A DNA stretch of 36,609 nucleotides, taken from a virus (lineage: Duplodnaviria > Heunggongvirae > Uroviricota > Caudoviricetes). The first letter of the stretch is position 1. Every line of letters starts with the position of its first letter. The notes beneath the pieces were generated by a model. That model was not told the DNA's origin and did not search any database. It worked only from the letters and a program-made list of their open reading frames with translations. Shown piece after piece: positions 18,931 to 36,609 of this stretch. Position numbers and translations under genes: made by a program. Where the stretch lies: IMG/VR virus record IMGVR_UViG_2698536401_000015, one strand, 5' to 3'.

Positions 18931-19425
18931 ATGGCTGGAACGGCGGGGCGTTCCGGGCGTCGCCCCAAGCCAACGGCGCGCAAGGCGCTGGCCGGAAACC
19001 CCGGCAAGCGAGCCCTGAACAAAGATGAACCTGTTTTTACGCCCATCAAAGGTGTTGAGCCACCGGAGTGGTTCGCTGAAGAAGATCTCCCTCTCGCCAC
19101 GATCATGTGGCAACTGACAACCAAAGAACTCTGCGGTCAGGGCCTGCTGTGCGTGACTGACCTCGCGGTGCTTGAGCGGTGGTGCGTGGCCTATGAGTTC
19201 TGGCGACGTGCCGTGAAAAATATTGCCAGACAGGGCAACACCATCACCGGTGCAATGGGCGGCATGGTCAAAAATCCGGAGCTGACCGCCAAAAAAGAAC
19301 AGGAGTCCGAGATGAGCAGCACGGGGGCAATGCTCGGACTCGACCCCAGCAGCCGCCAGCGTCTGATTGGCCTGGCGGGGAAGAAGAAAGCCACTAACCC
19401 GTTTCTGAAAATCATCGAATCATGA
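18931..19425 (+). CDS. terminase small subunit
   Basis: Start at ATG 18931 with AGGAG ribosome-binding site (the track begins at an upstream GTG); translationally coupled to the large subunit. Confidence 0.75.
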
Positions 19426-21155
19426 GCCGGAAATCTTACCCCAACGTAAATGCTGCCAATCAGTATGCCCGGGATGTCGTGCGCGGAAAGATTGTGGCCT
19501 GCCAGTTTGTGATTCAGGCCTGCCAGCGCCATCTTGATGACCTGATGGCGGAAAAAAGTAAGTCGTTTCGTTACCGCTTCGACAAGGACCTGGCTGAACG
19601 GGCCGCCAAATTTATTCAGCTGTTGCCGCACACCAAGGGTGAGTGGGCATTCAAGAGGATGCCCATCACGCTGGAGCCGTGGCAGCTCTTTGTGATCTGC
19701 TGCGCGTTTGGCTGGGTCAATAAAGGCTCCCGGCTGCGCCGCTTCCGGGAGGTGTATACCGAAATCCCCCGTAAGAACGGCAAATCAGCAATCTCTGCCG
19801 GTGTCGCCCTGTATTGTTTTGCCTGTGATAACGAGTTCGGCGCGGAAGTGTATTCCGGTGCCACGACGGAGAAACAGGCATGGGAAGTCTTTCGTCCGGC
19901 AAGACTGATGTGTAAACGCACACCCATGCTGACGGAAGCGTTCGGGATTGAAGTTAACGCCTCAAACATGAACCGTCCGGAGGATGGTGCGCGTTTTGAA
20001 CCGCTGATCGGTAACCCCGGTGATGGTTCATCACCCCACTGTGCGGTGGTGGATGAATATCACGAGCACGCCACAGATGCGCTTTACACCACGATGCTTA
20101 CCGGGATGGGGGCGCGACGTCAGCCACTGATGTGGGCTATCACTACTGCCGGGTACAACATTGAGGGGCCGTGCTACGACAAACGGCGGGAAGTTATCGA
20201 GATGCTCAACGGTTCGGTACCCAACGATGAACTGTTCGGGATCATCTATACCGTTGACGAAGGTGACGACTGGACCGACCCACAGGTGCTGGAAAAAGCC
20301 AACCCGAATATCGGGGTGTCGGTTTACCGTGAGTTTTTGTTAAGTCAGCAACAACGTGCGAAAAATAACGCCCGTCTGGCAAACGTCTTTAAAACAAAAC
20401 ACCTCAATATCTGGGTGTCGGCGCGTTCGGCGTATTTCAACCTGGTGAGCTGGCAGAGCTGCGAGGATAAGTCACTGACTCTTGAGCAATTCGAGGGGCA
20501 GCCGTGCATTCTGGCCTTTGACCTGGCGCGTAAACTGGATATGAACAGCATGGCGCGACTTTATACCCGTGAGATTGACGGTAAAGCGCATTACTACAGT
20601 GTGGCCCCGCGTTTCTGGGTACCGTATGACACGGTGTACAGCGTCGAGAAAAATGAAGATCGCCGGACAGCCGAACGCTTTCAGAAATGGGTGGAAATGG
20701 GCGTCCTGACCGTTACCGATGGTGCAGAGGTGGATTATCGCTACATCCTCGAAGAGGCCAAAGCGGCGAACAAAATCAGCCCGGTCAGCGAGTCACCCAT
20801 CGACCCCTTCGGGGCGACCGGGCTGTCACATGACCTTGCTGATGAAGACCTGAACCCCATCACCATTATTCAGAACTACACCAACATGTCCGATCCGATG
20901 AAAGAGCTGGAAGCGGCAATTGAATCGGGGCGCTTTCATCATGATGGCAATCCCATCATGACCTGGTGTATCGGCAACGTGGTCGGCAAAACTATTCCGG
21001 GTAACGATGATGTGGTGAAGCCCGTCAAAGAGCAGGTGGAAAACAAAATCGATGGTGCAGTTGCGCTGATTATGGCGGTTGGCAGAGCCATGCTGTACGA
21101 GAAAGAAGACACGCTGTCTGACCACATTGAGTCCTATGGGATCCGCTCGCTTTAA
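19422..21155 (+). CDS. terminase large subunit (ATPase and nuclease)
   Basis: 577 aa; position and size; Walker-A-like region; start overlaps terS stop (ATGA). Confidence 0.9.
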
Positions 21156-21166
21156 CTGAGGTAATT

Positions 21167-21349
21167 ATGATCATGCTGATTCTCGCGCCTCTGGTGGGCG
21201 TGCTGGGTGCGCTTTTGCTGGCGTATGGTGCCTGGCTGATTTATCCCCCGGCGGGGTTTGTTGTTGCCGGGGCGTTGTGTCTGTTCTGGTCGTGGCTGGT
21301 GGCGCGATATCTCGACCGTACACAGCTGTCTGATGGTGGAGGTAAATAG
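21167..21349 (+). CDS. small two-TM membrane protein (60 aa)
   Basis: GAGGT ribosome-binding site; two hydrophobic helices; sits between terminase and portal. Confidence 0.5.
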
Positions 21350-22590
21350 TGTTCTTTTCGGGATTATTTCAACGAAAAAGTGACGCACCGGTGACCACGC
21401 CAGCAGAGCTGGCGGATGCTATCGGGTTGTCCTACGACACCTATACCGGAAAGCAGATCAGCAGTCAGCGGGCCATGCGACTGACGGCGGTTTTTTCCTG
21501 TGTCAGGGTGCTGGCGGAGTCGGTCGGGATGTTGCCCTGCAACCTGTATCACCTGAATGGCAGTCTGAAGCAGAGAGCCACTGGCGAACGTCTGCATAAG
21601 CTGATCTCCTCGCATCCTAATGGCTATATGACGCCGCAGGAGTTCTGGGAGCTGGTGGTCACCTGTCTGTGCCTGCGGGGCAACTTTTACGCCTACAAAG
21701 TGAAAGCATTTGGCGAAGTGGCTGAACTGCTGCCCGTCGATCCCGGCTGTGTGGTACCGAAGCTTAACAGTAGCTGGGAGCCGGTCTATCAGGTCACATT
21801 CCCGGACGGCTCAACGGATGTGCTGACCCAGGAGGATATCTGGCATGTGCGCACGCTGACGCTGGACGGTCTGGTGGGACTGAATCCCATCGCCTATGCC
21901 CGCGAGGCAATATCGCTGGCAGCAGCGACTGAAGAACACGGTGCCAGACTGTTCAGCAATGGCGCGGTGACGTCCGGTGTGTTGCGTACAGAACAGACGC
22001 TGTCGGATCAGGCTTATGAGCGCCTGAAGAAAGATTTTGAGGAGCGTCACACCGGGCTTGGCAATGCTCACCGCCCGATGATCCTTGAGATGGGGCTGGA
22101 CTGGAAGTCGATGGCATTGAACGCCGAGGACAGCCAGTTCCTGGAAACCCGCAAGTTTCAGCTTGAAGAAATCTGTCGTCTGTTCCGGGTGCCATTGCAT
22201 ATGGTGCAGAACACCGATCGCGCCACCTTCAACAATATCGAAGAGCTGGGGCTGGGATTTATCAACTATTCACTGGTGCCGTATCTGACCCGCATTGAGC
22301 AGCGGATCAACACCGGACTGGTACGAAAAAGTAAGCAGGGCATTTATTACGCCAAATTTAACGCCGGGGCGTTACTGCGCGGGGATATGAAGTCCCGTTT
22401 TGAAGCCTACGCCACCGGGATCAACTGGGGAATTTACTCTCCCAATGACTGCCGCGACCTGGAAGATATGAATCCGCGTCCCGGTGGTGATGTCTATCTC
22501 ACACCGATGAACATGACCACGAAACCCTCCGATGGCAGTAAAGCCGGTAAGCAGAAGGATAACGCCAATGCAGACGAAACAACGTCTTGA
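21349..22590 (+). CDS. portal protein (HK97-family)
   Basis: 413 aa; GTG start overlapping the upstream stop with a GGAGG ribosome-binding site; follows terminase. Confidence 0.85.
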   Translation: MFFSGLFQRKSDAPVTTPAELADAIGLSYDTYTGKQISSQRAMRLTAVFSCVRVLAESVGMLPCNLYHLNGSLKQRATGERLHKLISSHPNGYMTPQEFWELVVTCLCLRGNFYAYKVKAFGEVAELLPVDPGCVVPKLNSSWEPVYQVTFPDGSTDVLTQEDIWHVRTLTLDGLVGLNPIAYAREAISLAAATEEHGARLFSNGAVTSGVLRTEQTLSDQAYERLKKDFEERHTGLGNAHRPMILEMGLDWKSMALNAEDSQFLETRKFQLEEICRLFRVPLHMVQNTDRATFNNIEELGLGFINYSLVPYLTRIEQRINTGLVRKSKQGIYYAKFNAGALLRGDMKSRFEAYATGINWGIYSPNDCRDLEDMNPRPGGDVYLTPMNMTTKPSDGSKAGKQKDNANADETTS

Positions 22591-23218
22591 TGTACCGCTG
22601 AGTCTGAAATCTGTCAGTGACTCCGGTGAGTTTGAAGGGTATGGCTCCGTCTTTGGTGTAAAGGACAGCCACGATGATGTGGTGATGTCCGGGGCATTTG
22701 CTGCTTCCCTGCGGGCGTGGAGTGACAGAAAAGCGTTACCTGCGCTGCTCTGGCAGCACCGCATGGATGAACCCATCGGTGTTTATACCGAAATGAAGGA
22801 AGACGATGTCGGGCTTTACGTCAGGGGGCGGTTGCTCATTGATGATGATCCCCTGGCAAAACGCGCACATGCACACATGAAGGCCGGTTCGTTAACCGGC
22901 CTTTCTATTGGGTACGTCCTGAAAGACTGGGAATACGACCGGAGCAAAGAAGCCTTTCTGCTGAAAGAAATCGACCTCTGGGAAGTCAGTCTGGTGACGT
23001 TCCCGTCTAACGACGAGGCGCGGATCAGCGACGTCAAGAACTCGCTGGCCCGCGGGGAAATCCCCGAACAAAAAAAAATCGAAAGAGTCCTGCGTGATGT
23101 CGGACTCTCCCGTACCCAGGCCAAAGCATTCATGGCCGGGGGCTATGGCGCACTGTCCCTGCGCGACGCTGAGGATGTGGGCTCTGCACTGAATGCACTG
23201 AAAAATCTGAACTTCTAA
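22568..23218 (+). CDS. prohead maturation protease (HK97 gp4-like)
   Basis: Start at MQTKQRLD overlapping the portal end; position between portal and capsid. Confidence 0.75.
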   Translation: MQTKQRLDVPLSLKSVSDSGEFEGYGSVFGVKDSHDDVVMSGAFAASLRAWSDRKALPALLWQHRMDEPIGVYTEMKEDDVGLYVRGRLLIDDDPLAKRAHAHMKAGSLTGLSIGYVLKDWEYDRSKEAFLLKEIDLWEVSLVTFPSNDEARISDVKNSLARGEIPEQKKIERVLRDVGLSRTQAKAFMAGGYGALSLRDAEDVGSALNALKNLNF

Positions 23219-23232
23219 TCAGGAGAAATACG

Positions 23233-24438
23233 ATGGCGGTTGATATTAAAGATGTCGAACAGGTCGCGCAGGAGCTGCAGCAGAAGTTTGACGACTTCAA
23301 AGCAAAGAACGACAAGCGCGTTGATGCGATTGAGCAGGAAAAAGGCAAGCTTGCCGGGCAGGTGGAAACCCTGAACGGGAAACTCAGCGAGCTGGAAAAT
23401 CTCAAAAGCGACCTTGAAAAAGAGCTGCTTGAGCTGAAACGTCCGGCAGGTGGAGCGCAAAATAAACTGGCCACCGAGCATAAAGAGGCGTTTGTGGGCT
23501 TCCTGCGTAAAGGCCGTGAAGACGGTCTGCGCGATCTGGAGCGTAAGGCATTGCAGGTGGGTACCGATGAAGACGGTGGCTACGCCGTGCCGGAAGCACT
23601 GGATCGCAACATTCTTAACCTGCTGAAAGATGAAGTGGTGATGCGTCAGGAAGCCACGGTGATCACCGTTGGCGGTTCCGACTACAAAAAACTGGTGAAT
23701 CTGGGCGGTACGGCTTCCGGATGGGTGGGGGAAACGGATACGCGATCCCAGACTGCCACCTCCAGACTGGAGCTGATTGAACCTCTCATGGGGGAAATCT
23801 ACGGCAACCCGCAGGCTACCCAGAAAATGCTGGACGATGCCTTCTTCAACGTGGAGGCCTGGATCAACAGCGAGCTGGCAACCGAATTTGCCGAACAGGA
23901 AGAAATTGCCTTTACCTCAGGCGATGGCACCAAGAAGCCGAAAGGGTTCCTGGCGTATGAATCCACTGATGAAACCGACAAGGTCCGGGCGTTCGGCAAA
24001 CTTCAGCATATTGTATCCGGCGAAGCGACCGCGGTGACCGCAGACGCCATTATCAAACTGATTTACACGCTGCGTAAGGCACACCGCACTGGCGCGAAGT
24101 TCATGATGAACAACAACAGCCTGTTTGCCATCCGTCTGCTGAAAGACACCGAGGGTAACTATCTGTGGCGTCCGGGGCTGGAACTGGGGCAGCCGTCCTC
24201 TCTGGCGGGTTACGGTATCGCTGAAAACGAACAGATGCCGGATATCGCCGCTGATGCGAAAGCCATTGCATTTGGTAACTTCAAACGGGGTTACACCATC
24301 GTTGACCGTATCGGCACCCGCATTCTGCGTGACCCGTACACCAATAAACCGTTTGTCGGTTTTTATACCACCAAGCGCACCGGCGGGATGCTGGTCGATT
24401 CGCAGGCCATCAAACTGCTGAAGATTGCAGCGGCGTAA
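23233..24438 (+). CDS. major capsid protein (HK97 fold) with N-terminal coiled-coil scaffolding domain
   Basis: 401 aa; N-terminal heptad-rich delta domain; AGGAG ribosome-binding site. Confidence 0.85.
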   Translation: MAVDIKDVEQVAQELQQKFDDFKAKNDKRVDAIEQEKGKLAGQVETLNGKLSELENLKSDLEKELLELKRPAGGAQNKLATEHKEAFVGFLRKGREDGLRDLERKALQVGTDEDGGYAVPEALDRNILNLLKDEVVMRQEATVITVGGSDYKKLVNLGGTASGWVGETDTRSQTATSRLELIEPLMGEIYGNPQATQKMLDDAFFNVEAWINSELATEFAEQEEIAFTSGDGTKKPKGFLAYESTDETDKVRAFGKLQHIVSGEATAVTADAIIKLIYTLRKAHRTGAKFMMNNNSLFAIRLLKDTEGNYLWRPGLELGQPSSLAGYGIAENEQMPDIAADAKAIAFGNFKRGYTIVDRIGTRILRDPYTNKPFVGFYTTKRTGGMLVDSQAIKLLKIAAA

Positions 24439-24487
24439 TCACTCAGGGGCGCGGAACCGCGCCCCCTGTTCTGACGGGTGAAGAATC

Positions 24488-24688
24488 ATGATCCTGAAAC
24501 AAGATCTGAAATGGTCACCGGACGGTATGCGTGTTGAGGTCATTCGGGCCGGTGAGTATGACGACGGGGCGCTTCCTGCCCGGGTGCAGGAGATTGCACT
24601 TCAGGCCGGGTTAGCAGAGCGCGGAACCAGTGCAAAAAGCAGTAAAGCGACAAAAGAGAAAAAAGCCACGACCAGTAAAGAGGGCTGA
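24488..24688 (+). CDS. hypothetical small head-module protein (66 aa)
   Basis: ORF between capsid and connector; lysine-rich C-terminus. No family recognised. Confidence 0.4.
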   Translation: MILKQDLKWSPDGMRVEVIRAGEYDDGALPARVQEIALQAGLAERGTSAKSSKATKEKKATTSKEG

Positions 24689-24690
24689 GT

Positions 24691-25014
24691 ATGCTTCTGA
24701 CAATGGAAGAGATTAAAGCCCAACTCCGGCTGGATGAGGATTTCGATGCTGATGACCGCCATCTGCAACTGCTGGCCTGTGCGGCGCAAAAGCGGACGGA
24801 AACGTATCTGAACCGGAAGCTCTATGCACCGGATGAAACCATTCCGGACAGCGACCCGGACGGACTGCACCTGCCGGATGATATTCGTCTGGGGATGCTG
24901 ATGCTTATCAGCCATTTTTACGAAAACCGCTCGTCGGTTACGGAAGTGGAGAAACTCGACATGCCGCAGAGTTTTAGCTGGCTTGTCGGCCCGTACAGGT
25001 ACTTTCCGCAATGA
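24691..25014 (+). CDS. head-tail connector protein (gp6-like)
   Basis: 107 aa; position and size; ...LGMLMLISHFYENR... region typical of this family. Confidence 0.65.
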   Translation: MLLTMEEIKAQLRLDEDFDADDRHLQLLACAAQKRTETYLNRKLYAPDETIPDSDPDGLHLPDDIRLGMLMLISHFYENRSSVTEVEKLDMPQSFSWLVGPYRYFPQ

Positions 25015-25421
25015 AAATTCGTCAGGCGCAGACCAGCGCAACCTACATTCTGCCGGACCCCGGTGAACTGAATAAACGCGTCCTGATCCGCCTGCGGGTG
25101 GATATGCCCGCGGATAACTTTGGCGTGGAGCCTCAATACCCGGTTACGTTCCGGACATGGGCGAAGGTTATCCAGACCAGTGCCACCACCTGGCAGGAAA
25201 CCGCGCAGACCGGGGACGCCATCACCCATTACATCACCATTCGTTACCGCCGGGGGATCACCGCTGATTATGAGGTGGTCTGCGGTGACAGTGTGTACCG
25301 GGTGAAACGTCAGCGCGATCTGAACGGGGCGCGGCGCTTTCTGCTGCTGGAGTGTACGGAGCTGGGCGAATGTAGGCAGAGTCACGGAGGCAGCAATGGC
25401 GACTCCCTTTTTTCACGTTGA
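25011..25421 (+). CDS. head closure / head-tail joining protein (gp7-like)
   Basis: ITHYITIRYRRGIT...YRV motif region typical of the head-tail joining family. Confidence 0.65.
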   Translation: MKIRQAQTSATYILPDPGELNKRVLIRLRVDMPADNFGVEPQYPVTFRTWAKVIQTSATTWQETAQTGDAITHYITIRYRRGITADYEVVCGDSVYRVKRQRDLNGARRFLLLECTELGECRQSHGGSNGDSLFSR

Positions 25422-25902
25422 TGTTCAGCAGCCCGCCGAGATGCGCTTTAACCGCGCCCGTGTCCGGCGGGCGTTTGTCACGATTGGGCAGCGTCATATG
25501 CGTGATGCCCGTCGGCTGGTGATGCGCCGTGCGCGGTCGGCACCGGGTGAAAACCCCGGTTATCAGACCGGACGCCTGGCTCGTTCGATTGGTTATATGG
25601 TGCCGAGAGCCAGTAAAAAGCGAGCCGGTTTTATGACACGCATTGCCCCTAACCAGCGCAACGGGAAGGGGAACCGGATGATCTCTGGTGACTTCTATCC
25701 GGCGTTTCTGTTTTTTGGTGTCCGGGGAGGAGCAAAACGTCGTCGTAGTCATCATCGTGGTGCATCCGGTGGCAGCGGCTGGCGACTGGCTCCACGTAAT
25801 AACTTCATGGTGGAAACTCTTGAAAAGAACCGCAGCTGGACACGCTATTTTCTGGCGCGGGAATTGCGTAAATCACTGAAGCCGGAGCGACGACACAGAT
25901 GA
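25396..25902 (+). CDS. HK97 gp10-like morphogenesis protein
   Basis: 168 aa, basic; position after the head closure protein. Confidence 0.6.
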   Translation: MATPFFHVDVQQPAEMRFNRARVRRAFVTIGQRHMRDARRLVMRRARSAPGENPGYQTGRLARSIGYMVPRASKKRAGFMTRIAPNQRNGKGNRMISGDFYPAFLFFGVRGGAKRRRSHHRGASGGSGWRLAPRNNFMVETLEKNRSWTRYFLARELRKSLKPERRHR

Positions 25903-26459
25903 AACTGACGCCTGTTATTGCTGCGCTGCGTGCCCGCTGCCCGTATTTTGAAAACCGGGTGGCAGGCGCGGCACAGTTCAAAAATTTGCCGGAGGTCGGA
26001 AAGCTGAGACTCCCGGCGGCGTATGTGGTACCGGGGGATGATTCTCCGGGAGAAAACAAAAGCCAGACCGACTACTGGCAGGAGCTGAAAGAGGGCTTCT
26101 CCGTGGTTGTCATACTGAGTAACGGACGTGATGAGCGCGGTCAGTTTGCCTCGTATGATGTGGTGGACGATGTCCGGCAGATGCTCTTTAAGGCCCTGCT
26201 GGGCTGGAACCCGGAAGCGTGCGGTAACCCGATTACCTATGACGGCGGCACGCTGCTGGATCTGAATCGTCATGAGCTGATTTATCAGTTCGATTTTTCG
26301 GTCATCAGCGAGCTGACCGAAGACGATACCCGCCAGCAGGATGACCTGAACAGTCTGGATGAACTGCAAACGCTGGCGATTGATGTTGATTATCTCGAGC
26401 CCGGTAACGGGCCTGACGGCGATATCGAACATCACACCGAAATAACCCTTCCTTCCTGA
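25899..26459 (+). CDS. tail-associated neck/terminator-like protein
   Basis: 186 aa; position immediately upstream of the sheath module; family not confidently recognised. Confidence 0.4.
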   Translation: MKLTPVIAALRARCPYFENRVAGAAQFKNLPEVGKLRLPAAYVVPGDDSPGENKSQTDYWQELKEGFSVVVILSNGRDERGQFASYDVVDDVRQMLFKALLGWNPEACGNPITYDGGTLLDLNRHELIYQFDFSVISELTEDDTRQQDDLNSLDELQTLAIDVDYLEPGNGPDGDIEHHTEITLPS

Positions 26460-26467
26460 GGATCCTC

Positions 26468-26638
26468 ATGTTTGTCAAACCTGTTAAAGGGCGGTCAGTG
26501 CCTGACCCTGCCCGCGGTGACCTTTTGCCCACCGAAGGGCGAAATGTTGACGAGAACAACTACTGGCTGCGCCGTGAAGCAGCGGGTGATATCCGGCGCG
26601 TGAATAAAAAGGTGAATACCGATGACGATAAGCTTTAA
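26468..26638 (+). CDS. small conserved protein preceding the sheath gene (56 aa, Mu-like, DUF2635-like)
   Basis: ATG with GAGGA ribosome-binding site; translation MFVKPVKGRSVPDPARGDLLPTEGRNVDENNYWLRREAAGDIRRVNKKVNTDDDKL; not in the track (under 60 aa); overlaps the sheath start. Confidence 0.5.
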   Translation: MFVKPVKGRSVPDPARGDLLPTEGRNVDENNYWLRREAAGDIRRVNKKVNTDDDKL

Positions 26639-28118
26639 CACCATTCCGTCGAATACGCTGGTTCCGCTGTTTTATGCGGAAATGGATAACCAGGCGGCGA
26701 ATACTGCACAGGACAGCGGGGCATCGTTGCTGATTGGTCACGCCAATAACGGTGCAGAGATTGTTGCCAACAGTCTGGTGCTGATGCCGTCGGCAGACTA
26801 TGCACGCCAGATTTGTGGTGCGGGAAGTCAGCTGGCGCGTATGGTTGAGGCTTATCGCCAGACCGACCCGTTTGGTGAGCTGTATGTGATTGCCGTTCCT
26901 GAATCCACGGGCGCGGCGGCAACAGTTACGCTGACGGTGACCGGGGCGGCAACCGAAACCGGCACGGTGAATGTTTATGTGGGACGTACCCGCGTGCAGG
27001 CACCGGTGACCAACGGCGATAACGTCGCGACCATTGCCAGCAGTATCCAGGATGCCATCAATGCCGTTCCGACTCTGCCGTTTACAGCTTCATCTTCGGC
27101 TGGTGTGGTCACGCTGACCGCGCGTCATAAGGGGCTTTGCGGGAATGAAATTCCTGTCAGCCTCAATTACTACGGCTTCGGTGGGGGCGAAGTGCTGCCA
27201 GCGGGCGTACAGATTGCCGTGGCGACGGGGACCGCCGGAACGGGCGCTCCGGTTCTCACCGGCGCGGTGGCTGCAATGGCGGATGAGCCGTTTGATTATA
27301 TCGGCCTGCCGTTCAACGACACGGCCTCCGTTAACACGCTGGTGACCGAGATGAACGATACCAGCGGTCGCTGGAGCTATGCGCGTCAGCTGTATGGTCA
27401 TGTGTATACGGCAAAGACCGGTACGCTGTCAGAACTGGTGACCGCAGGTGACCAGTTTAACCAGCAGCACATTACCCTGGCGGGGTACGAAAAAGAGACC
27501 CAGACGCCTGCCGACGAACTGGCGGCAAGCCGTACCGCCCGCGCAGCGGTGTTTATTCGCAACGATCCGGCACGTCCCACGCAGACCGGTGAGCTGGTGG
27601 GTATGCTGCCTGCGCCGAAGGGGAACCGGTTCACGATGACCGAACAACAGACCCTGCTGTCTCATGGCGTGGCAACGGCGTATGTCGAAAGCGGGGTACT
27701 GCGCATTCAGCGTGATGTCACCACGTACAGGAAAAACGCTTACGGGGTTGCGGATAACAGCTACCTAGACAGTGAGACTCTGCATACCAGCGCGTATGTA
27801 CTGCGCAAACTGAAATCCGTCATTACCAGTAAGTACGGGCGTCACAAGCTTGCCAGCGACGGTACCCGCTTTGGTCCCGGTCAGGCGATTGTCACCCCGG
27901 CGGTAATCAAAGGGGAACTGCTGGCAACCTACCGTCAGCTCGAGCGTGCGGGGATCGTGGAAAACTACGAACTGTTTAAGCAATACCTAGTTGTGGAGCG
28001 TGATGCCAGCGATCCGAACCGCCTGAACACGCTGTTCCCGCCTGACTATGTTAACCAGTTGCGTGTTTTTGCCGTGGTTAACCAGTTCCGTCTTCAGTAT
28101 TCAGAGGAGTCTGCATAA
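26622..28118 (+). CDS. contractile tail sheath protein (Mu L-like)
   Basis: 498 aa; size and position; AAGGTG ribosome-binding site. Confidence 0.85.
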   Translation: MTISFNTIPSNTLVPLFYAEMDNQAANTAQDSGASLLIGHANNGAEIVANSLVLMPSADYARQICGAGSQLARMVEAYRQTDPFGELYVIAVPESTGAAATVTLTVTGAATETGTVNVYVGRTRVQAPVTNGDNVATIASSIQDAINAVPTLPFTASSSAGVVTLTARHKGLCGNEIPVSLNYYGFGGGEVLPAGVQIAVATGTAGTGAPVLTGAVAAMADEPFDYIGLPFNDTASVNTLVTEMNDTSGRWSYARQLYGHVYTAKTGTLSELVTAGDQFNQQHITLAGYEKETQTPADELAASRTARAAVFIRNDPARPTQTGELVGMLPAPKGNRFTMTEQQTLLSHGVATAYVESGVLRIQRDVTTYRKNAYGVADNSYLDSETLHTSAYVLRKLKSVITSKYGRHKLASDGTRFGPGQAIVTPAVIKGELLATYRQLERAGIVENYELFKQYLVVERDASDPNRLNTLFPPDYVNQLRVFAVVNQFRLQYSEESA

Positions 28119-28474
28119 TGGCCCGTATCGGGGGAACCTGTTATTTCAAAATTGACGGTCAGCAGCTATCGCTGACCGGCGGCATTGAGGTGCCCATGAA
28201 CAGGACGGTCAATGATGACATCATCGGCCTGGACGGTTCAGTGGACCGCAAGGAAACTCACCGTGCGCCTTATGTCAAAGGGACCTTCAAGGTACCGAAG
28301 AATTTTCCGGTGAGCAAAATCACCTCGTCTGATGAGATGACCATCACTGCCGAGCTGGCGAACGGTCAGGTCTATGTATTGTCGTCCGCCTGGCTGCACG
28401 GAGAAGCGAACCATAATGCCGAAGAAGGCACGGTTGATCTTGAGTTCCACGGTGAAGAAGGGGATTACCAGTAA
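28118..28474 (+). CDS. tail tube protein (Mu M-like)
   Basis: 118 aa immediately after the sheath; GAGGAG ribosome-binding site. Confidence 0.8.
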   Translation: MARIGGTCYFKIDGQQLSLTGGIEVPMNRTVNDDIIGLDGSVDRKETHRAPYVKGTFKVPKNFPVSKITSSDEMTITAELANGQVYVLSSAWLHGEANHNAEEGTVDLEFHGEEGDYQ

Positions 28475-28743
28475 TGAAAGAGCTTGAGTTAAAGAAACCG
28501 ATTATCGCTCATGGTGAGACACTCTCCGTACTGGAGTTTGATGAGCCCACCGGGAAAGATGTCCGCGAGCTGGGGTATCCCTACCAGATGAATCAGGATG
28601 AGTCCGTCAGACTTCTGGCGCATGTGGTGTCGAAATACATTGTGCGGCTGGCGAAAGTGCCGCAAAGCTCTGTCGACCAGATGTCTCCGGCAGACCTGAA
28701 TGCAGCGGCGTGGCTTGTGGCTGGTTTTTTCCTCCAGGCCTGA
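28474..28743 (+). CDS. tail assembly chaperone (G-like, short form)
   Basis: 89 aa immediately upstream of the tape measure gene; ends just after a slippery heptamer. Confidence 0.6.
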   Translation: MKELELKKPIIAHGETLSVLEFDEPTGKDVRELGYPYQMNQDESVRLLAHVVSKYIVRLAKVPQSSVDQMSPADLNAAAWLVAGFFLQA

Positions 28744-28892
28744 CGGCTGAATACCTCACTGATCGCTTCTTTGACTGCGCCAGCTACTGGCGCATTAATC
28801 CCTTCGAATTGCTGAATATGCCGATCAGTGAAATTCCCTTGCTGGTCAGTCAGGCAAACAGGATAGAGCAGGAGAAACGCACACATGGCTGA
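28731..28892 (+). CDS. -1 frame extension of the tail assembly chaperone (GT-like long form via programmed frameshift)
   Basis: Slippery heptamer T_TTT_TTC at 28725-28731 in the zero frame; the -1 frame stays open to 28892, overlapping the tape measure start. Confidence 0.5.
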   Translation, partial: PPGLTAEYLTDRFFDCASYWRINPFELLNMPISEIPLLVSQANRIEQEKRTHG

Positions 28893-30717
28893 ATTTGAGC
28901 TTAAGGCGTTGATCACCGGTGTCGACAGGCTTTCTCCCGCGCTGTCGAAAATGCAAAAGAAAATCCGGGGATTTAAACGCCAGGCGGAAGAAGCGTCACA
29001 GGGTGGGCTGGCGCTTGGTGGAGGACTGGCAGCGGGGCTGACGCTTTCCCTGAAATCTTATGCCGATCAGGAAAACGCCGCTACCGGGCTGAAAGTCGCC
29101 ATGATGGATGCGAACGGCGAGGTTGGAAAGAGCTTTCAGGACATCAATAAACTGGCTATTGGCCTGGGTAACCAGCTACCCGGTACAACGGCTGATTTCC
29201 AGAACATGATGCAGATGCTGGTGCGTCAGGGGATCCCGGCAGAAAACATTCTGGGTGGTGTGGGTAAAGCGACAGCTTATCTTGCGGTACAACTGAAAAA
29301 AACACCGGAAGCGGCTGCTGAGTTTGCTGCAAAGATGCAGGATGCTACCGGAACGGCGTCAGAAGACATGATGGGGCTGTTCGACACTATCCAGAAGGCG
29401 TTTTATCTGGGCGTTGACGATACCAACATGTTGTCCTTCTTCACTAAAACCAGTTCTGTTCTGAAGATGGTGAACAAGGACGGTCTTCAGGCTGCACAGA
29501 GCCTTGCCCCCATCAGCGTCATGATGGATCAGATGGGGATGAACGGGGAGTCGGCAGGTAATGCCCTGCGAAAAGTTATCCAGTCCGGATTAAGTGTTAA
29601 GAAAATCAGGGACGTCAATAAAGTCATGGCCCGCCAGAAACTCGGGGTACAGCTCGATTTTACTGACGGCAAAGGAAGTTTTGGCGGTCTTGATAACATG
29701 TTCAGGCAACTGGCAAAGTTGCGAAAACTGACCGACGTTAAGCGAACAGGCGTACTTAAGGCAATATTTGGTGATGATGCCGAAACCCTTCAGGTGGTCA
29801 ATGCCCTGATCGATAAAGGAAAGGATGGCTACGATCAGATCCAGCAGAAGATGAATAAACAGGCCAGCCTGAATAAACGTGTTCAGGCTCAGCTTGGTAC
29901 GCTGTCCAACCTGTGGGAGGCAATGACGGGGACCGCAACTAACGGTCTTGCAGCTATTGGCGGCGCATTTTCTGGTGACGCTAAAAATATCACGCAATGG
30001 CTGGGGGAGTTGGGGGAAAAATTCACGAAGTTTGCGGATGAAAATCCCCGGGTTATTCGCGGCGTCGTCGGGCTTGCTGCCGGTCTTGCGATTCTGAAAC
30101 TGGGATTGATGGGCGTTGGCGGTGCCATCAGTATTGTCAGCAGGATCATGTCGATGACGCCGATTGGCATGATTGCGACGGCGATAGCCCTGGCTGCGGG
30201 ATTAATTATCACTAACTGGGATGTTGTCGGACCTTATTTTAAGAAACTCTGGGAAACCATTGGTCCTTATTTTGAGGCTGGCTGGGAACTCCTTAAGAAA
30301 GTTTTTGCCTGGTCGCCGCTGGGGATGGTGATCAATAACTGGGGGCCGGTTGTTAAGTGGTTTCAGGATATGTGGGACAAGCTGAAGCCAATTATTGAGT
30401 GGTTTACCGACAGTTCCGGTGACACGGTCGATGCCATTAACTCTGCGCAGTGGGGCGCGGGTGCTTATGATGCTTATGGGACGGGAATACCGACGCGGGG
30501 ATACACACCTTATCCGGCGGTAGATCCGGCTCAGTCAAACAACGCCTCCGATGCCACAGGCCCGAATCCCTTCATGATTAACAAAGCTATCGCGCCAAAA
30601 GTTGATGGCGAGATCAAGGTTTCATTTATGAATATGCCACCAGGTATGCGGGTTACGGAAACACGTTCCAGTGGCATTGATATTAATCACGATGTTGGGT
30701 ACACCAGATTTAGGTAA
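28885..30717 (+). CDS. tail tape measure protein
   Basis: 610 aa, helical and glycine/alanine-rich with a hydrophobic C-terminal half; GGAGAA ribosome-binding site. Confidence 0.85.
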   Translation: MAEFELKALITGVDRLSPALSKMQKKIRGFKRQAEEASQGGLALGGGLAAGLTLSLKSYADQENAATGLKVAMMDANGEVGKSFQDINKLAIGLGNQLPGTTADFQNMMQMLVRQGIPAENILGGVGKATAYLAVQLKKTPEAAAEFAAKMQDATGTASEDMMGLFDTIQKAFYLGVDDTNMLSFFTKTSSVLKMVNKDGLQAAQSLAPISVMMDQMGMNGESAGNALRKVIQSGLSVKKIRDVNKVMARQKLGVQLDFTDGKGSFGGLDNMFRQLAKLRKLTDVKRTGVLKAIFGDDAETLQVVNALIDKGKDGYDQIQQKMNKQASLNKRVQAQLGTLSNLWEAMTGTATNGLAAIGGAFSGDAKNITQWLGELGEKFTKFADENPRVIRGVVGLAAGLAILKLGLMGVGGAISIVSRIMSMTPIGMIATAIALAAGLIITNWDVVGPYFKKLWETIGPYFEAGWELLKKVFAWSPLGMVINNWGPVVKWFQDMWDKLKPIIEWFTDSSGDTVDAINSAQWGAGAYDAYGTGIPTRGYTPYPAVDPAQSNNASDATGPNPFMINKAIAPKVDGEIKVSFMNMPPGMRVTETRSSGIDINHDVGYTRFR

Positions 30718-30748
30718 AGACGAACAGGGAGGGTCGCCCCCCCTGAAC

Positions 30749-31195
30749 TTACTGTGCGAACACGCAATTTCGGCCTGATGGGGAGCCGACAATTCTGGAC
30801 ATTTTTTCGCAAATAACAGTTACTTGTTCTCCTTTTTTAAGAGCAGCAGCTGTTGATTTTTCAGAGTCTTGCATCTCCATTCTTGCTGGCATGAATTCAT
30901 TTTCAGTTCTGAATTTAATAATTATAGAGTCAGTAAAGTCCTTATCAATGGATTGTACGATACCTCTAACGGCGATTAATTTACCTTTTAACTGTTCATC
31001 GGTAGCGACTTCATTTTCTTCATACTCTTTAAACAGCTGTCGAGCAGTAGTGTTGTAGATTTCTTTTTGCGGTGCCGCAGCTTCCGTATCGGATGAGTAT
31101 GAAGAATTAGAGCCTTTATCGTTATTGCCTGCAAAATATCCAATAATCACCAACCCGATGAAAATATATAAAATCCATTTTAATAATTTCTTCAT
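30749..31195 (-). CDS. cargo gene: membrane-anchored OB-fold-like protein (148 aa), opposite strand inside the tail operon
   Basis: Low GC; own AAGGTGA ribosome-binding site; N-terminal TM helix (LLKWILYIFIGLVIIGYF) then a soluble domain (...QLFKEYEENEVATDEQLKGKLIAVRGIV...) resembling tRNA_anti-like/BOF OB-fold proteins. Confidence 0.6.
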   Translation of the reverse strand: MKKLLKWILYIFIGLVIIGYFAGNNDKGSNSSYSSDTEAAAPQKEIYNTTARQLFKEYEENEVATDEQLKGKLIAVRGIVQSIDKDFTDSIIIKFRTENEFMPARMEMQDSEKSTAAALKKGEQVTVICEKMSRIVGSPSGRNCVFAQ

Positions 31196-31305
31196 GTTAT
31201 CACCTTAATGCTAATAATTTATATAGTTACAAATGGTAATGGCTACCACTACAAATTATGGCATTACCAGTAAATATTACTACTGATAATAAATATGGGA
31301 CTTAT

Positions 31306-32634
31306 ATGACGTGGAAAGACAGGCTTCAGGATGCGTCATTTCGCAGCGTGCCGTTTAAGGTTGAAGAAGAAAGTGCGGGAACCGGTCGCCGTGTGGAAAC
31401 ACATGAATACCCGAACCGCGACAAGCCCTATACCGAAGATCTGGGAAAAGTCACTTTCCGCCCGTCCATCACAGCTTATGTGGTGGGAGATGACTGCTTT
31501 GACCAGCGCGATCGCCTGATTGAAGCGCTGAATAAACCCGGTCCCGGCACGCTTGTCCACCCGACATATGGTGAGCTGAAAGTCTGTGTTGACGGGGAAG
31601 TTCGGGTCAGCACATCGAAAAGTGAAGGGCGTATTGTCCGCTTTGACCTGAAGTTTGTCGAAGCAGGAGAACTCTCTTACCCCACATCAGGTGCGGCGAC
31701 GGCGCAGACGCTGATGTCATCCTGTTCTGCACTGGATGACTGCATCAGTGACAGCTTCAGCGGTTTCAGTATCGATGGTGTGGCGGATTTCGTGCAGAAC
31801 GACGTTATCGGTAATGCCAGCATAATGCTGGGGTATGTTTCTGATGCGATGAAAGTGGTGGATTCTGCCGTATCGGATGCCGCCAGGCTGTTGCAGGGGG
31901 ATATCTCGGTACTTCTGCCGCCGCCATCGTCAGGCAAAAATTTCGTTGAGCAGGTGCAGAAAATGTGGCGTACCGGGAAACGCCTTTATGGTAACGCCAG
32001 CGACCTGGTCACCATGATCAAAACGCTTTCCGGTGTCAGCCTCGGCAGCGATCTGCAACCGCGCGGCGTCTGGAAAACGGACAGTAAAACCACCGCCACG
32101 GCGACGCAGCAGCGTAACGTGGTTGCCAGCACCCTTCGTACGACCGCAATCAGCGAAGCGGCGTATGCCGTCACCCGATTGCCTGCGCCAATAACTTCCG
32201 CGGTGATGCAGAATTCCGCAGTGGGGCAGGCAACAACACCCGCGCAGAGCACTGGCTGGCCTTCCGTCACGCATCCGGCACTGAACAATGCACCGGCGGT
32301 GAAAAACACGGTTGACCTGCCGACGTGGGAAGAACTGACTGACATTCGCGACACACTGAATACGGCAATTGATAAGGAGTTGTCCCGTACAACCAGTGAT
32401 GCGCTGTTTCTGGCGCTGCGCCGGGTGAAAGCAGATCTGAATGCGGATATCAACACGCGCCTTGAACAGTCTGCACGGATCATTCAGCGCACACCGGATG
32501 AGGTTTTACCCGCGCTGGTGCTGGCGGCGACCTGGTTTGATAACGCGGCGCGTGACGCGGACATTATCCGGCGTAATGCCATTACGCATCCCGGCTTTGT
32601 GCCGGTGATCCCTCTGAAGGTGCCAGTGCAATGA
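31306..32634 (+). CDS. Mu N-like DNA circularisation protein
   Basis: N-terminal region (MTWKDRLQDASFRSVPFKV...) fits the DNA_circ_N family; an alternative upstream ATG at 31258 lies in AT-rich sequence. Confidence 0.75.
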   Translation: MTWKDRLQDASFRSVPFKVEEESAGTGRRVETHEYPNRDKPYTEDLGKVTFRPSITAYVVGDDCFDQRDRLIEALNKPGPGTLVHPTYGELKVCVDGEVRVSTSKSEGRIVRFDLKFVEAGELSYPTSGAATAQTLMSSCSALDDCISDSFSGFSIDGVADFVQNDVIGNASIMLGYVSDAMKVVDSAVSDAARLLQGDISVLLPPPSSGKNFVEQVQKMWRTGKRLYGNASDLVTMIKTLSGVSLGSDLQPRGVWKTDSKTTATATQQRNVVASTLRTTAISEAAYAVTRLPAPITSAVMQNSAVGQATTPAQSTGWPSVTHPALNNAPAVKNTVDLPTWEELTDIRDTLNTAIDKELSRTTSDALFLALRRVKADLNADINTRLEQSARIIQRTPDEVLPALVLAATWFDNAARDADIIRRNAITHPGFVPVIPLKVPVQ

Positions 32635-33710
32635 ACGACAATGTCACGCTACGGGTAAATGGCCGGGAGTGGAATGGCTGGACATCGGTGCGCATCGGTG
32701 CCGGTATTGAACGGCTGGCGCGGGATTTCAGTGTGGAGATCACTCGCCAGTGGCCGGGAGATGAGGGTATCACCACGCTTCAGCCGCGCATTAAAAACGG
32801 TTCAAAAGTGGAAGTGCTGATTGGTGATGAGCTGGTGATTACCGGCTGGGTGGAGGCGACTCCCGTTCGTTACGATGCCCGTTCGGTCAGCACCGGTATT
32901 GCCGGACGTAGTCTGACGGCTGACCTGATTGACTGTGCAGCCGAACCGACACAGTTTAACGGACGCTCGCTGGTGCAGATTGCGCAGGCGCTTGCTGCGC
33001 CTTTCGGCATTGAGGTGGTGAACAGCGGTGCGCCATCGGGTGTTATTCCTGATGTTCAGCCTGATCACGGTGAAACGGTGATTGAGGTAATCAACAAAAT
33101 ACTCGGTCAGCAGCAGGCGCTGGCTTACGACGACCCGCACGGCAGGCTGGTGATTGGCGGTATTGGCTCAACGCGGGCACATACCGCGCTGGTACTTGGG
33201 GAAAACATCCTTTCCTGTGATACGGAGAAGAGTATCCGGGAGCGGTTTTCTGTTTACCAGGTGGCGGGGCAGCGTGCCGGAAACGACGATGATTTCGGTG
33301 AGGCCACCACCACCGCGCTGCGGGCCCGCACAGAGGACGCATTTATTGCCCGTTACCGTCCGATGTATATCAGGCAGACAGGGCAGGCTACGGGGGCAGG
33401 CTGTATTGCGCGTGCTGACTTTGAAGCCCGGCAACGGGCGGCGCGGACGGATGAAACCACCTATGTGGTGCAGGGCTGGCGACAGGGTAACGGTACGCTG
33501 TGGCAGCCCAACCAGCGGGTGATTGTCTTCGATCCGGTCTGTGGTTTCGACAATACCGAACTGCTTGTCTCGGAAGTCACGTTTACTCAGGACCAGAACG
33601 GCACCCTGACGGAAATCCGTGTCGGCCCGCCTGATGCTTATCTGCCTGAACCCGAAGATCCCGGCGCGCGGAAAAAGAAAAAAGCCAGAGTACAGGAGGA
33701 CCCGTTCTGA
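32631..33710 (+). CDS. Mu P-like baseplate hub protein
   Basis: 359 aa; start overlaps the upstream stop; order matches the Mu tail module. Confidence 0.75.
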   Translation: MNDNVTLRVNGREWNGWTSVRIGAGIERLARDFSVEITRQWPGDEGITTLQPRIKNGSKVEVLIGDELVITGWVEATPVRYDARSVSTGIAGRSLTADLIDCAAEPTQFNGRSLVQIAQALAAPFGIEVVNSGAPSGVIPDVQPDHGETVIEVINKILGQQQALAYDDPHGRLVIGGIGSTRAHTALVLGENILSCDTEKSIRERFSVYQVAGQRAGNDDDFGEATTTALRARTEDAFIARYRPMYIRQTGQATGAGCIARADFEARQRAARTDETTYVVQGWRQGNGTLWQPNQRVIVFDPVCGFDNTELLVSEVTFTQDQNGTLTEIRVGPPDAYLPEPEDPGARKKKKARVQEDPF

Positions 33711-34258
33711 TGAGGACGATTGAAGCCATGCAGCGACAACTTCTCGGCCTGATTGGGCGGGCAGTGGTGAAAAGCATCAGTGCCGCCACGAAATGTCAGA
33801 CCGTGGATGTGTCCCTGATTGCCGGTGAACCCAAAGCCGGGGTTGAACATCTTGAACCCTACGGTTTTACCGCAAGGGCAAACAGCGGTGCGGAAGCGGT
33901 GGTGTTGTTTCCGGATGGCGACCGTTCTCATGCGGTGGTTGTTACGGTGTCGGACCGGCGCTACCGCCTGAAAGGGCTGCAGACGGGTGAGGTGGCGGTC
34001 TATGACGATCAGGGGCAGTCCGTGACGCTGACCCGGGCGGGGATCGTGGTGGACGGTGCAGGGAAAACGATCACGTTTCGCAATGCATCTAAAGCACGTT
34101 TTGAAATGGACCTGGAAGTGACCGGACAGGTGAAAGACCTGTGCGACTCCGGCGGCACCACCATGTCAGCGATGCGGCTTGCCTATAACGGCCATCGTCA
34201 CAGAGAGAATGGTCAGGGCAGTAACACCGACAAACCGGATAAAGCGATGGAGGCATGA
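33710..34258 (+). CDS. baseplate spike / assembly protein V-like
   Basis: 182 aa; position and size in the Mu-like baseplate cluster. Confidence 0.7.
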   Translation: MRTIEAMQRQLLGLIGRAVVKSISAATKCQTVDVSLIAGEPKAGVEHLEPYGFTARANSGAEAVVLFPDGDRSHAVVVTVSDRRYRLKGLQTGEVAVYDDQGQSVTLTRAGIVVDGAGKTITFRNASKARFEMDLEVTGQVKDLCDSGGTTMSAMRLAYNGHRHRENGQGSNTDKPDKAMEA

Positions 34259-34683
34259 TGGAACTGTGGCTGACGGTGAACGGTAAACGCACCTGCGCCA
34301 GCGTACCGCTGGATCCGCTGACCCGCGCCGTGGTGATTTCCCTGTTCACCTGGCGGCGGGCGGAGCCTGATGACAATGCCGACGTCCCGATGGGATGGTG
34401 GGGGGATACCTGGCCTGCGGTACAGAATGACCGTTACGGCTCCCGGCTGTGGCTGCTTCAGCGCGGCAAACTGACCAATCAGCTGGTGCAGACGGTAAGG
34501 GGGTATATCCGCGAATGCCTGCAATGGATGATTGATGACGGTGTGGTGTCCCGTATTGATCTGGATATCCGCCGCACCGGGATTAATGAACTGGGTAACA
34601 GTATCACTCTCTGGCGTCGTGACGGACCGGTAATGATTTCTTTTGATGATCTGTGGAGTGCGATAACGCATGGCGGACAGTGA
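34255..34683 (+). CDS. GP46-family baseplate protein
   Basis: 142 aa with the PMGWWGD...GS.LW.L motif region of the GP46 family. Confidence 0.7.
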   Translation: MMELWLTVNGKRTCASVPLDPLTRAVVISLFTWRRAEPDDNADVPMGWWGDTWPAVQNDRYGSRLWLLQRGKLTNQLVQTVRGYIRECLQWMIDDGVVSRIDLDIRRTGINELGNSITLWRRDGPVMISFDDLWSAITHGGQ

Positions 34684-35728
34684 ATTTCAGCGCCCGACGC
34701 TGGCAGAAAATATCAGTATGCTCCGTAACGATTTATTCGCCAGGCTGGACGTCAGCGACACGCTCCGGCGCATGGATGAAGACGTGCGGGCAAAGGTGTA
34801 TGCGGCGGCGCTGCATACGGTTTACGGTTACATCGATTATCTGGCAATGAACATGCTGCCTGACCTGTGCGATGAGTCCTGGCTGGCGCGACATGCTGCG
34901 ATGAAACGGTGTCCGCGCAAGGGGGCCACGGCTGCCAGCGGGTATATGCGCTGGGAAGGTGTCAGCGATGGCCTGAAGGTGACCGCCGGGAGTGTTATTC
35001 AGCGCGATGACCTGGTTCAGTACACGGCAACTGCCGATGCAACCAGCTCCGGTGGTGTCCTGCGCGTGCCGATCGCCTGCTCAAGTGCAGGAGCGGTCGG
35101 TAACGCTGACGACGGTACGTCATTAATCCTGGTCACGCCGGTGAATGGTCTGCCGTCTTCCGGCGTGGCAGACACTCTGACAGGTGGATTTGATACTGAA
35201 GAGCTGGAAACGTGGCGCGCCCGCGTCATTGAGCGGTATTACTGGACGCCTCAGGGCGGGGCTGACGGGGACTATGTCGTCTGGGCTAAAGAAGTGCCCG
35301 GCATTACCCGCGCATGGACATACCGTCACTGGATGGGAACGGGAACTGTCGGTGTGATGATTGCCAGCAGTGACCTGATTAATCCCATTCCGGAAGAATC
35401 AACGGAAACGGCGGCAAGACAACATATCGGGCCACTGGCCCCGGTGGCAGGCTCTGATTTGTATGTCTTCAGGCCGGTGGCGCATAAAGTGGATTTTCAT
35501 ATCCGCGTGACGCCGGACACACCGGAAATACGGGCTGCCATCACCGCCGAGTTGCGTTCGTTCCTGCTGCGTGATGGTTATCCGCAGGGAGAACTGAAGG
35601 TGTCGCGTATCAGTGAGGCGATTTCCGGTGCGAACGGGGAATACAGCCATCAGTTGTTTGCACCGGCAGACAATATCTCCATTGCAAAAAATGAACTGGC
35701 GGTACTGGGGACGATTTCATGGACGTGA
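34670..35728 (+). CDS. baseplate J-like protein
   Basis: 352 aa; position and size typical of J-like baseplate wedge proteins. Confidence 0.75.
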
Positions 35729-36303
35729 CAAACGATGATTACATCCGTCTGTTGTCGGCACTGTTGCCCCCCGGTCCGGCGTGGTCAGCCAGCGATCCGG
35801 CGATTGCCGGTGCGGCACCGTCATTAACCCGCGTTCATCAGCGTGCGGATGCCCTGATGCGGGAGCTGGATCCGCGCACCACCACCGAACTGATAAATCG
35901 CTGGGAGCGTCTGTGCGGCCTGCCGGATGAATGTATTCCCGCAGGGACACAGACCCTTCGCCAGCGTCAGCAACGACTGGATGCGAAGGTTAACCTGGCG
36001 GGCGGCATCAATGAGGATTTTTACCTTGCACAGCTTGCTGCCCTGGGCAGACCAGACGCCACCATCACGCGATACGACAAAAGCACGTTCACCTGCTCAT
36101 CGGCCTGTACTGACGCGGTGAATGCGCCGGAATGGCGGTATTACTGGCAGGTCAACATGCCAGCCGCCACCAACACCACCTGGATGACATGTGGCGATCC
36201 CTGTGATTCCGCACTGCGTATCTGGGGCGACACCGTTGTCGAGTGTGTGCTTAACAAACTCTGCCCGTCGCATACCTATGTGATTTTTAAATATCCGGAG
36301 TAA
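35719..36303 (+). CDS. tail protein (Mu gp48-like, DUF2313)
   Basis: 194 aa between the J-like gene and the tail fibre gene. Confidence 0.65.
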
Positions 36304-36306
36304 TCC

Positions 36307-36609
36307 ATGCATCGTATAGACACGAAAACCGCGCAGAAGGATAAGTTCGGCGCGGGTAAGAACGGTTTTACCCGTGGTAACCCCCAGACCGGCACGCCTG
36401 CCACCGATCTGGATGATGACTACTTTGACATGTTGCAGGAGGAGCTTTGCAGCGTTGTGGAGGCATCCGGTGCCAGCCTGGAGAAGGGGCGGCATGACCA
36501 GCTGCTTACCGCGCTTCGTGCGCTGCTGTTAAGCCGCAAGAATCCGTTTGGCGATATCAAATCGGATGGCACGGTGAAAACAGCTCTCGAAAACCTTGGT
36601 TTGGGAGAA
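36307..36609 (+). CDS. tail fibre protein, N-terminal fragment (truncated by the window end)
   Basis: ATG at 36307 and open to the window end; N-terminus (...[15 protein letters not shown]) typical of enterobacterial prophage tail fibres. Not in the track because no stop is reached. Confidence 0.7.

Follow-up and report, generated by a model that had tools for sequence, protein, structure and literature searches.

The lactococcal protein Sie2009 is the archetype of DNA-injection blocking by prophages (PMC4155818), and proteins of the Sie2009 type are described as preventing DNA injection. Exclusion of this type has so far been studied only in dairy lactococcal phages. Resistance to two other exclusion proteins, Ltp of TP-J34 and SieA of P22, maps to tape measure or ejection proteins. 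In the literature that we searched, no paper ties Sie2009 to the Pfam family PF12869, to an OB fold or to Gram-negative homologs. The publications found there on PF12869 (tRNA_anti-like, a family of exported OB-fold proteins) deal with TcdC or report genomes in which the family appears incidentally; none is a functional study, and the family is not mentioned in a 2026 paper on P2 defence hotspots. The SNIPE paper concerns an unrelated protein.

Here we describe a gene for a Sie2009-related OB-fold protein (the OB gene) in a stretch of viral DNA of 36,609 nucleotides (IMGVR_UViG_2698536401_000015), referred to below as the window. Its carrier is an SfV/e14-like E. coli prophage with a Mu-type contractile tail, and the gene is surrounded by a series of genes for Mu-type sheath, tube and baseplate proteins P, V, gp46 and J (Table 1). 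The first-pass annotation had reported an opposite-strand, low-GC gene for a 148-aa protein within a Mu-like tail module, an assignment that we confirm: the open reading frame starts with ATG, ends with TAA and has a GC content of 0.371. The interval that it had delimited, 30718-31305, coincides exactly with the intergenic region that separates the tape measure gene from that for the Mu N-like protein. The GC content at third codon positions (GC3) of the OB gene is 0.336, compared to a GC of 0.51-0.58 and a GC3 of 0.56-0.64 in the neighbouring genes, and the composition profile shows an abrupt trough between 30600 and 31400, with ~37% GC in the segment and ~55% around it. The N-like gene starts at 31306 and not at 31258, as ATGACGTGGAAAGAC opens this gene in all alleles compared. 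The start at 31258, which belongs to a longer listed reading frame, was rejected because its ATG is merely the reverse complement of the putative -10 hexamer of the OB gene.

Table 1. Coordinates of the OB gene, its predicted signals and protein parts, its flanks in the window, and the alleles found at the same junction in other E. coli genomes (L numbers denote compared loci).
Feature	Position or locus	Strand	Basis and remarks
Tape measure gene (left flank, outside the inserted element)	28885..30717	+	PF10145 PhageMin_Tail, E 9.8e-27; RefSeq 'phage tail tape measure protein'
Inserted low-GC cargo segment (apparent moron)	30718..31292	.	Junction comparison with empty and other cargo alleles; GC 0.38; GC trough
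Intrinsic-terminator-like hairpin	30715..30745 (stem-loop 30745..30725, then TTCGTCTTTA)	-	Predicted; 3 nt past the OB gene stop
CDS, 148-aa Sie2009-family OB-fold protein	30749..31195	-	RefSeq WP_000734912.1 'OB-fold protein'
OB-fold domain, codons 45-148	30752..31063	-	YxxNEVAxD and QSIDKDF motifs; invariant C129/C144
Ser/Asn-rich acidic disordered tether, codons 24-44	31064..31126	-	pLDDT <50 for residues 26-37
Hydrophobic N-terminal anchor, codons 7-23 (WILYIFIGLVIIGYFAG), after MKKLLK (+3)	31127..31177	-	KD19 maximum 2.16; AF2 helix 2-22
Shine-Dalgarno sequence AAGGTGA	31200..31206	-	5 nt upstream of the ATG; kept in the diverged E. coli allele
Extended -10-like element TGcCATAAT, with weak -35 TAGTAA at 31282..31277	31255..31263	-	Relaxed scan and alignment; predicted
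Mu N-like/DNA circularisation protein gene (right flank)	31306..32634	+	PF07157 DNA_circ_N, E 5.6e-33; RefSeq start
Empty allele: 60-bp junction, no gene	L002 (1222-1281)	n/a	Many other genomes also empty
176-aa protein with N-terminal hydrophobic helix	L003	+	178 E. coli genomes
79-aa remnant of the 176-aa protein (truncated)	L005	+	
125-aa bPH_1 domain protein	L004	+	28 E. coli genomes
225-aa lipoprotein, lipobox LLGGC	L006	+	55 E. coli genomes
Second OB allele, ~72% identical to the window gene	L016	-	7 E. coli genomes
Diverged OB allele broken by IS1	L007 1193-2339, strain CX08	-	One genome

This position is variable among E. coli genomes. The flanks of the OB gene (2-kb region) match 1,096 of 5,426 complete E. 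coli genomes at ~95-100% identity, which places the tail module concerned in ~20% of them, and the whole 2-kb stretch is intact in only 74 genomes. The OB gene itself occurs in 79 genomes, in every case on the chromosome, and is missing from >90% of the genomes with the same tail module. It had been suggested from the window that the gene is an insertion, and comparison with related tail modules bears this out: elsewhere the junction is either an empty 60 bp or filled with unrelated low-GC cargo, and the gene is clearly not a constant part of such modules (79/1,096). Similarity between the inserted segment and the other alleles ends straight after the tape measure stop codon and returns ~13 nt before the ATG of the N-like gene. 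The junction of SfV/e14-like prophages holds at least four unrelated cargo families (two TM-anchored, one lipoprotein and one with a bPH domain), and the GC content of all cargo there is 0.34-0.42. For the other cargo proteins, Pfam, PADLOC and the named PHROGs give no function apart from the bPH_1 domain. The junction between the tape measure and N-like genes behaves as an exchangeable cargo slot, or swap site, for small and mostly envelope-directed genes.

Decayed alleles are found as well. In at least eight genomes, including that of strain 042, the slot contains a deletion derivative of the window allele without start codon, hydrophobic helix or the upstream region with its putative promoter. 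Together with the IS1-disrupted allele, these derivatives indicate that selection to retain the gene is not strong everywhere. The remnant in strain 042 (L015 3001-3387) is nonetheless listed in RefSeq as a 128-aa 'OB-fold protein' that begins at a non-canonical start codon. The presence/absence polymorphism and the decayed alleles imply that the OB gene is dispensable cargo and not a part of the tail. It looks like a horizontally acquired moron in reverse orientation between the tape measure and N-like genes, with traits from the Juhala/Hendrix definition of such elements, as summarised in PMC3594210: it is extra DNA that is absent from the same junction in relatives, its base composition is unlike that of the surrounding genes and, by prediction, it has its own terminator.

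This terminator-like hairpin has a 9-bp stem with 7 GC pairs (-17.5 kcal/mol, z -2.25) and should keep transcription of the moron from proceeding antisense into the tape measure gene, with a predicted end 8 nt short of the tape measure stop codon. No plus-strand terminator was called at this hairpin, and its T-tract is on the minus strand only, so it should not halt transcription of the late operon. At the other end of the gene, we also find the ribosome-binding site of its own that had been noted before (Table 1). A strict sigma-70 scan of the 110-bp region upstream of the OB gene returned no promoter. In a relaxed scan combined with an alignment, an element TGCnATAAa is kept in three alleles with ~72% identical coding regions (TGcCATAAT in the window, TGcTATAAA and TGcGATAAA in the other two), and we predict from this conservation that the OB gene has a promoter with a weak match to the consensus. 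The empty and forward-strand alleles have in common a terminator-like hairpin and a GGAG Shine-Dalgarno sequence just 5' of the N-like ATG; the window allele has other sequence in its place, up to ~13 nt from that ATG. The plus-strand hairpin and T-run before the N-like gene (L002, L003, L004 and L006) sit inside the late tail operon, and this feature could be either the scar of an earlier moron or a normal element that is read through by Q-antiterminated transcription.

The three slot alleles (window, E. coli 15.03CC and Buttiauxella) are ~72% identical and differ at ~70% of the synonymous versus ~16% of the non-synonymous sites, corresponding to a dN/dS of ~0.05-0.1 with dS near saturation. 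The low non-synonymous divergence shows that the open reading frame is a real gene. Among the three alleles, the N-terminal part and the linker are under less constraint than the OB domain, and the tether has a higher pN than this domain; among homologs, the tether varies in length and sequence. The first-pass annotation had described one N-terminal TM helix followed by a soluble, OB-fold-like domain, and predictions support both parts of this description. A helix is predicted at residues 2-22 with a hydrophobicity maximum of 2.16; the protein matches PF12869 over residues 2-130 (69.5 bits versus a gathering cutoff of 23.5, E 2.9e-19), and the confident model of the domain has an OB fold like that of the solved PF12869 structure. 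All 90 database relatives belong to PF12869 and all come from Enterobacterales. In an alignment of 48 sequences, Y58, N61-E62-V63-A64, D66, G78, K85, G122, C129 and C144 are invariant. A sequence search of the PDB with the window protein gave nothing meaningful, with spurious coiled-coil matches only, and 3f1z, the top structural neighbour of both the window protein and Sie2009, was found only by fold search.

Several features bear on the topology of the protein. The N-terminal stub has a charge of +3 and no acidic residues, whereas both linker and domain are acidic, the latter with a pI of 5.2. In three homologs the anchor is replaced by a lipobox, and a Bordetella phage homolog has a cleavable signal peptide. 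The three lipoproteins have N, S or G at position +2; under the Lol sorting rule, such residues direct lipoproteins to the outer membrane. In addition, the invariant cysteine pair fits an oxidising compartment and hence a location of the OB domain outside the cytoplasm. From charge, hydrophobicity, the cysteine pair and the homolog forms, we infer that the N-terminus is inside and the OB domain in the periplasm. Reading the window protein by eye with the -3/-1 rule, we found no canonical signal-peptidase site; cleavage to a soluble periplasmic form is nevertheless a conceivable alternative to the TM anchor.

The relationship to Sie2009 is supported by several comparisons. For the window protein, the match to PHROG 8545 ('superinfection exclusion Sie-like') has an E-value of 1.5e-49; orf2 of Tuc2009 (sie2009), located between the repressor and integrase genes, bears the same Sie-like annotation, and its product matches PHROG 8545 at 1.7e-79 and PF12869 at 43.3 bits. 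Aligned to the enterobacterial profile with hhalign, Sie2009 scores a probability of 97.5% (E 6e-12) across anchor, linker and OB domain. A profile-profile comparison using a 17-member alignment of the Sie2009 family raises this to 98.5% (E 3e-15) over 89 columns; because these all lie inside the OB domain, the match is independent of hydrophobic and low-complexity regions. Even pairwise BLASTP detects the similarity (E 1e-6, over the NEVATDE...KGK region), and the Sie2009-family model has a helix at 14-32. Thus, PHROG and Pfam assignments, profile-profile comparison, structural neighbour and architecture agree that the window protein and Sie2009 of Tuc2009 belong to the same family. A tblastn search of phage records, even at E 5, returned no homolog annotated as Sie, and weak matches of the window protein to phrog_4980 and phrog_15667 cover the hydrophobic N-terminus only. 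Many lactococcal proteins of 163-166 aa share only the N-terminal ~20% of Sie2009, with a 94-100% identical anchor and linker, and have another C-terminal domain, in some cases DUF3862 (PF12978), which suggests that ectodomains of lactococcal Sie-like proteins have been swapped on a common membrane anchor.

Homologs of the OB gene are found in different genomic contexts. The slot and orientation seen in the window are shared by Buttiauxella (73% identity) and by the second E. coli allele. In other phages, the gene follows the immunity repressor directly and on the same strand, namely in the Burkholderia P2-like phage Carl1 (in the order repressor, hypothetical gene, OB gene, terminator), in a metagenomic P2-like contig, and in a lambdoid contig, where the repressor is a CI-type HTH/S24 protein and the OB domain is fused to a zinc ribbon. 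The homolog in Bordetella phage vB_BaM-IFTN4 is also downstream of the repressor gene and on its strand. This 263-aa open reading frame (L026 4833-5624, plus strand) encodes the protein with the cleavable signal peptide and matches PF12869 at E 2.9e-8; the deposited annotation instead places a 158-aa frame on the other strand (4850-5326), and three related Bordetella phage records probably carry this mis-annotation. A zinc-ribbon fusion is also encoded antisense within the baseplate module of Klebsiella phage ST405-OXA48phi1.2, and in Serratia the gene lies at a prophage edge beside tail fibre genes and an Acyl_transf_3 gene. Finally, homologs in Pantoea, Pectobacterium and one further enterobacterial contig are chromosomal with no phage genes nearby. 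Across these contexts, temperate phages have repeatedly set genes of this OB family at positions that are typically expressed in lysogens.

A candidate role in superinfection exclusion, raised when the window was first read, gains support from the homology to Sie2009 and from these contexts. We consider it probable, with moderate confidence, that the window protein is a lysogen-expressed exclusion protein of the Sie2009 type that is tethered to the inner membrane, carries a periplasmic OB domain and blocks DNA delivery after adsorption. In the lysogen, where the late operon is silent, the gene would probably be transcribed from a promoter of its own. The signal-anchor would fix the protein to the inner membrane with a cytoplasmic N-terminus, and the disordered tether of ~20 residues would project the acidic OB domain, probably stabilised by a disulfide, into the periplasm. 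Incoming phages would adsorb and, most likely, by homology with Sie2009, be blocked in the delivery of their DNA across the envelope. The domain could bind a component of the tail tip or of the tape-measure-derived conduit, or it could mask a periplasmic or inner-membrane entry factor. A PADLOC search with the window protein gave no match, PADLOC having no model for it, and searching NCBIfam yielded noise only.

The chromosomal homologs, at 55-65% identity to the window protein, show that the PF12869 OB family need not always act against phages, and they speak for a different reading, in which the protein is an envelope factor for lysogenic conversion or host fitness with no role in phage exclusion. 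Its periplasmic OB domain might then bind an oligosaccharide or another envelope ligand and contribute to stress tolerance, colonisation or toxin resistance, comparable to the Bor/Lom-type morons of lambda. OB folds bind ligands of many kinds, the Serratia homolog adjoins an O-antigen-type acyltransferase, the similarity to Sie2009 is remote, and morons are functionally diverse (PMC3594210). We still regard a pure host-fitness role as unlikely, because the one phage-borne family member that has been characterised by experiment blocks injection and the placement after the repressor recurs in four phage lineages. Furthermore, HK97 gp15, which is a Sie protein, likewise has chromosomal homologs (YebO; PMC3594210).

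Exclusion might also act at another step, through receptor masking and an adsorption block as in Cor and Llp, or at the peptidoglycan or outer membrane. The residues at +2 of the three lipoprotein homologs suggest that the target can be reached from either membrane. The window protein, however, has no lipobox, its tether is short compared to the width of the periplasm, and injection is the step at which Sie2009-type proteins are described to act, so that we give this variant a small chance only. An abortive infection mechanism of the AbiP/PdpSau type, in which an anchored, cytoplasm-facing OB domain would bind phage nucleic acid and trigger membrane damage, is very improbable: the +3 stub, the invariant cysteine pair and the lipoprotein and signal-peptide homologs put the domain outside the cytoplasm, and the domain is acidic instead of a positively charged cytoplasmic one and without a PADLOC match. 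A structural or assembly role in the tail, or a regulatory one such as antisense transcription into the tail operon, could be imagined for a gene inside the tail module and next to the tape measure gene, but is effectively refuted by the presence/absence data, since most genomes with the same module lack the gene and have an empty slot or unrelated genes there, deletion and IS1-disrupted alleles persist, the transcript is predicted to end 8 nt short of the tape measure stop codon, and homologs are also found in lysogeny modules and bacterial chromosomes.

We tentatively propose, as possible rather than probable, that the Sie2009 OB family is a cross-phylum injection-blocking module, repeatedly recruited by temperate phages of Firmicutes and Proteobacteria, and at the same time that the junction between the tape measure and N-like genes is a dedicated, exchangeable slot for envelope-directed exclusion genes. 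Should this be true, the locus would make E. coli a tractable organism in which to ask which part of the DNA-delivery conduit a membrane-tethered OB domain recognises, and the three other cargo families would become candidate exclusion or defence genes. A family with the same architecture in prophages of E. coli, Klebsiella, Burkholderia and Bordetella would open the mechanism to E. coli genetics and defined phage panels. In addition, a cargo gene that standard defence-finders miss could alter phage susceptibility, which is relevant to host-range prediction in phage therapy.

Other variable sites are found in the same prophage. The window is collinear with the prophage in NZ_CP046000.1 only over 18453-36609 and two other blocks (Rfam, tRNA and BLAST comparisons). 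Its left part (1-2622) is the prophage boundary, with proA (1-1254), tRNA-Thr(CGT) (1369-1444) and a tyrosine integrase gene (1459-2622, minus strand); this is the thrW/proA site, at which SfV-like phages integrate. A second antisense cargo gene follows directly after the Q antiterminator and encodes a 331-aa protein with a ClpP-like, SDH-type serine protease domain (13591-14586, minus strand; PF01972, E 1.9e-14), and the reference strain 1916D18 has an NYN-domain gene at the same position, which makes this a variable cargo site near Q. The Q region is separated from the lysis genes by an IS3-family insertion sequence with rve/HTH_21 transposase domains (15012-16238, minus strand); it contains an IS1222-type ribosomal frameshift element at 15785-15902 (Rfam, 156.6 bits) and has no counterpart in the prophage of NZ_CP046000.1, which is otherwise similar. 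The segment from the lysis cassette to the terminase (17009-18452) also differs from the reference, with a gene for a 260-aa protein without a Pfam match in the window (17593-18375, plus strand) and two antisense hypothetical genes in the reference prophage. Past the position of the right end of the window, NZ_CP046000.1 (L001 30404-33080) encodes a cytosine methyltransferase, a type II restriction endonuclease and a GIY-YIG protein after the pinE invertase, so that this distal prophage end is another defence-type cargo cluster.

Among the known systems, the 'putative nucleic acid-binding lipoprotein' of Klebsiella (PDB 3f1z) is close in fold but only 16% identical, and it is a lipoprotein and not TM-anchored; the 'nucleic acid-binding' in its name is a prediction. 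C. difficile TcdC and AbiP/PdpSau share with the window protein a single-pass anchor, a C-terminal OB fold and an origin in mobile or phage-derived elements. In the literature, however, TcdC is treated as a toxin-expression regulator, a type of role that was considered here and rejected, whereas AbiP and PdpSau are treated as Abi proteins with positively charged cytoplasmic domains, in contrast to the acidic domain of the window protein, which is predicted to be exported. Ltp of TP-J34 and SieA of P22 are comparable as prophage-expressed, membrane-attached DNA-injection blockers but belong to unrelated folds and families. Ltp is a PF07553 protein, and the window protein has neither a PF07553 match nor a cysteine in its N-terminal region; SieA has three predicted TM helices instead of one.

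By position, the closest analogue is gp15 of HK97, the original moron. It also is a moron in the tail operon directly beside the tape measure gene with a terminator of its own, and its product, a small inner-membrane protein with chromosomal, non-phage homologs, blocks genome injection. The two proteins are not homologous: gp15 has 62 aa and is YebO-like (PF13974, phrog_5031), and the window protein matches neither PF13974 nor phrog_5031. Furthermore, gp15 is encoded on the strand of the tail genes and on the opposite side of the tape measure gene, and it lacks a folded periplasmic domain.

By homology, the closest system is Sie2009 itself (identical to SieLC3). The differences are considerable, as identity is ~27% across phyla with very different envelopes, the Gram-negative host of the window protein would place the domain in the periplasm and not on the cell surface, and the invariant cysteine pair and C-terminal strand of the enterobacterial proteins have no counterpart in the alignment. 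The window copy is also encoded antisense in a tail operon and not in a lysogeny module; the location between repressor and integrase is the usual place of the family and not a mechanistic requirement, and relatives of the window gene are likewise found just downstream of a repressor. Still, both proteins consist of an N-terminal TM helix, a Ser-rich disordered linker and an OB domain of ~105 residues, and both are prophage cargo, fall into PHROG 8545 and PF12869 and have 3f1z as their top structural neighbour. The database names 'OB-fold protein' (RefSeq) and 'Sie-like' (PHROGs) were already in place for such proteins; what the present comparison adds is the explicit homology to Sie2009 with its shared OB fold, and the exchangeable cargo slot at the tail junction.
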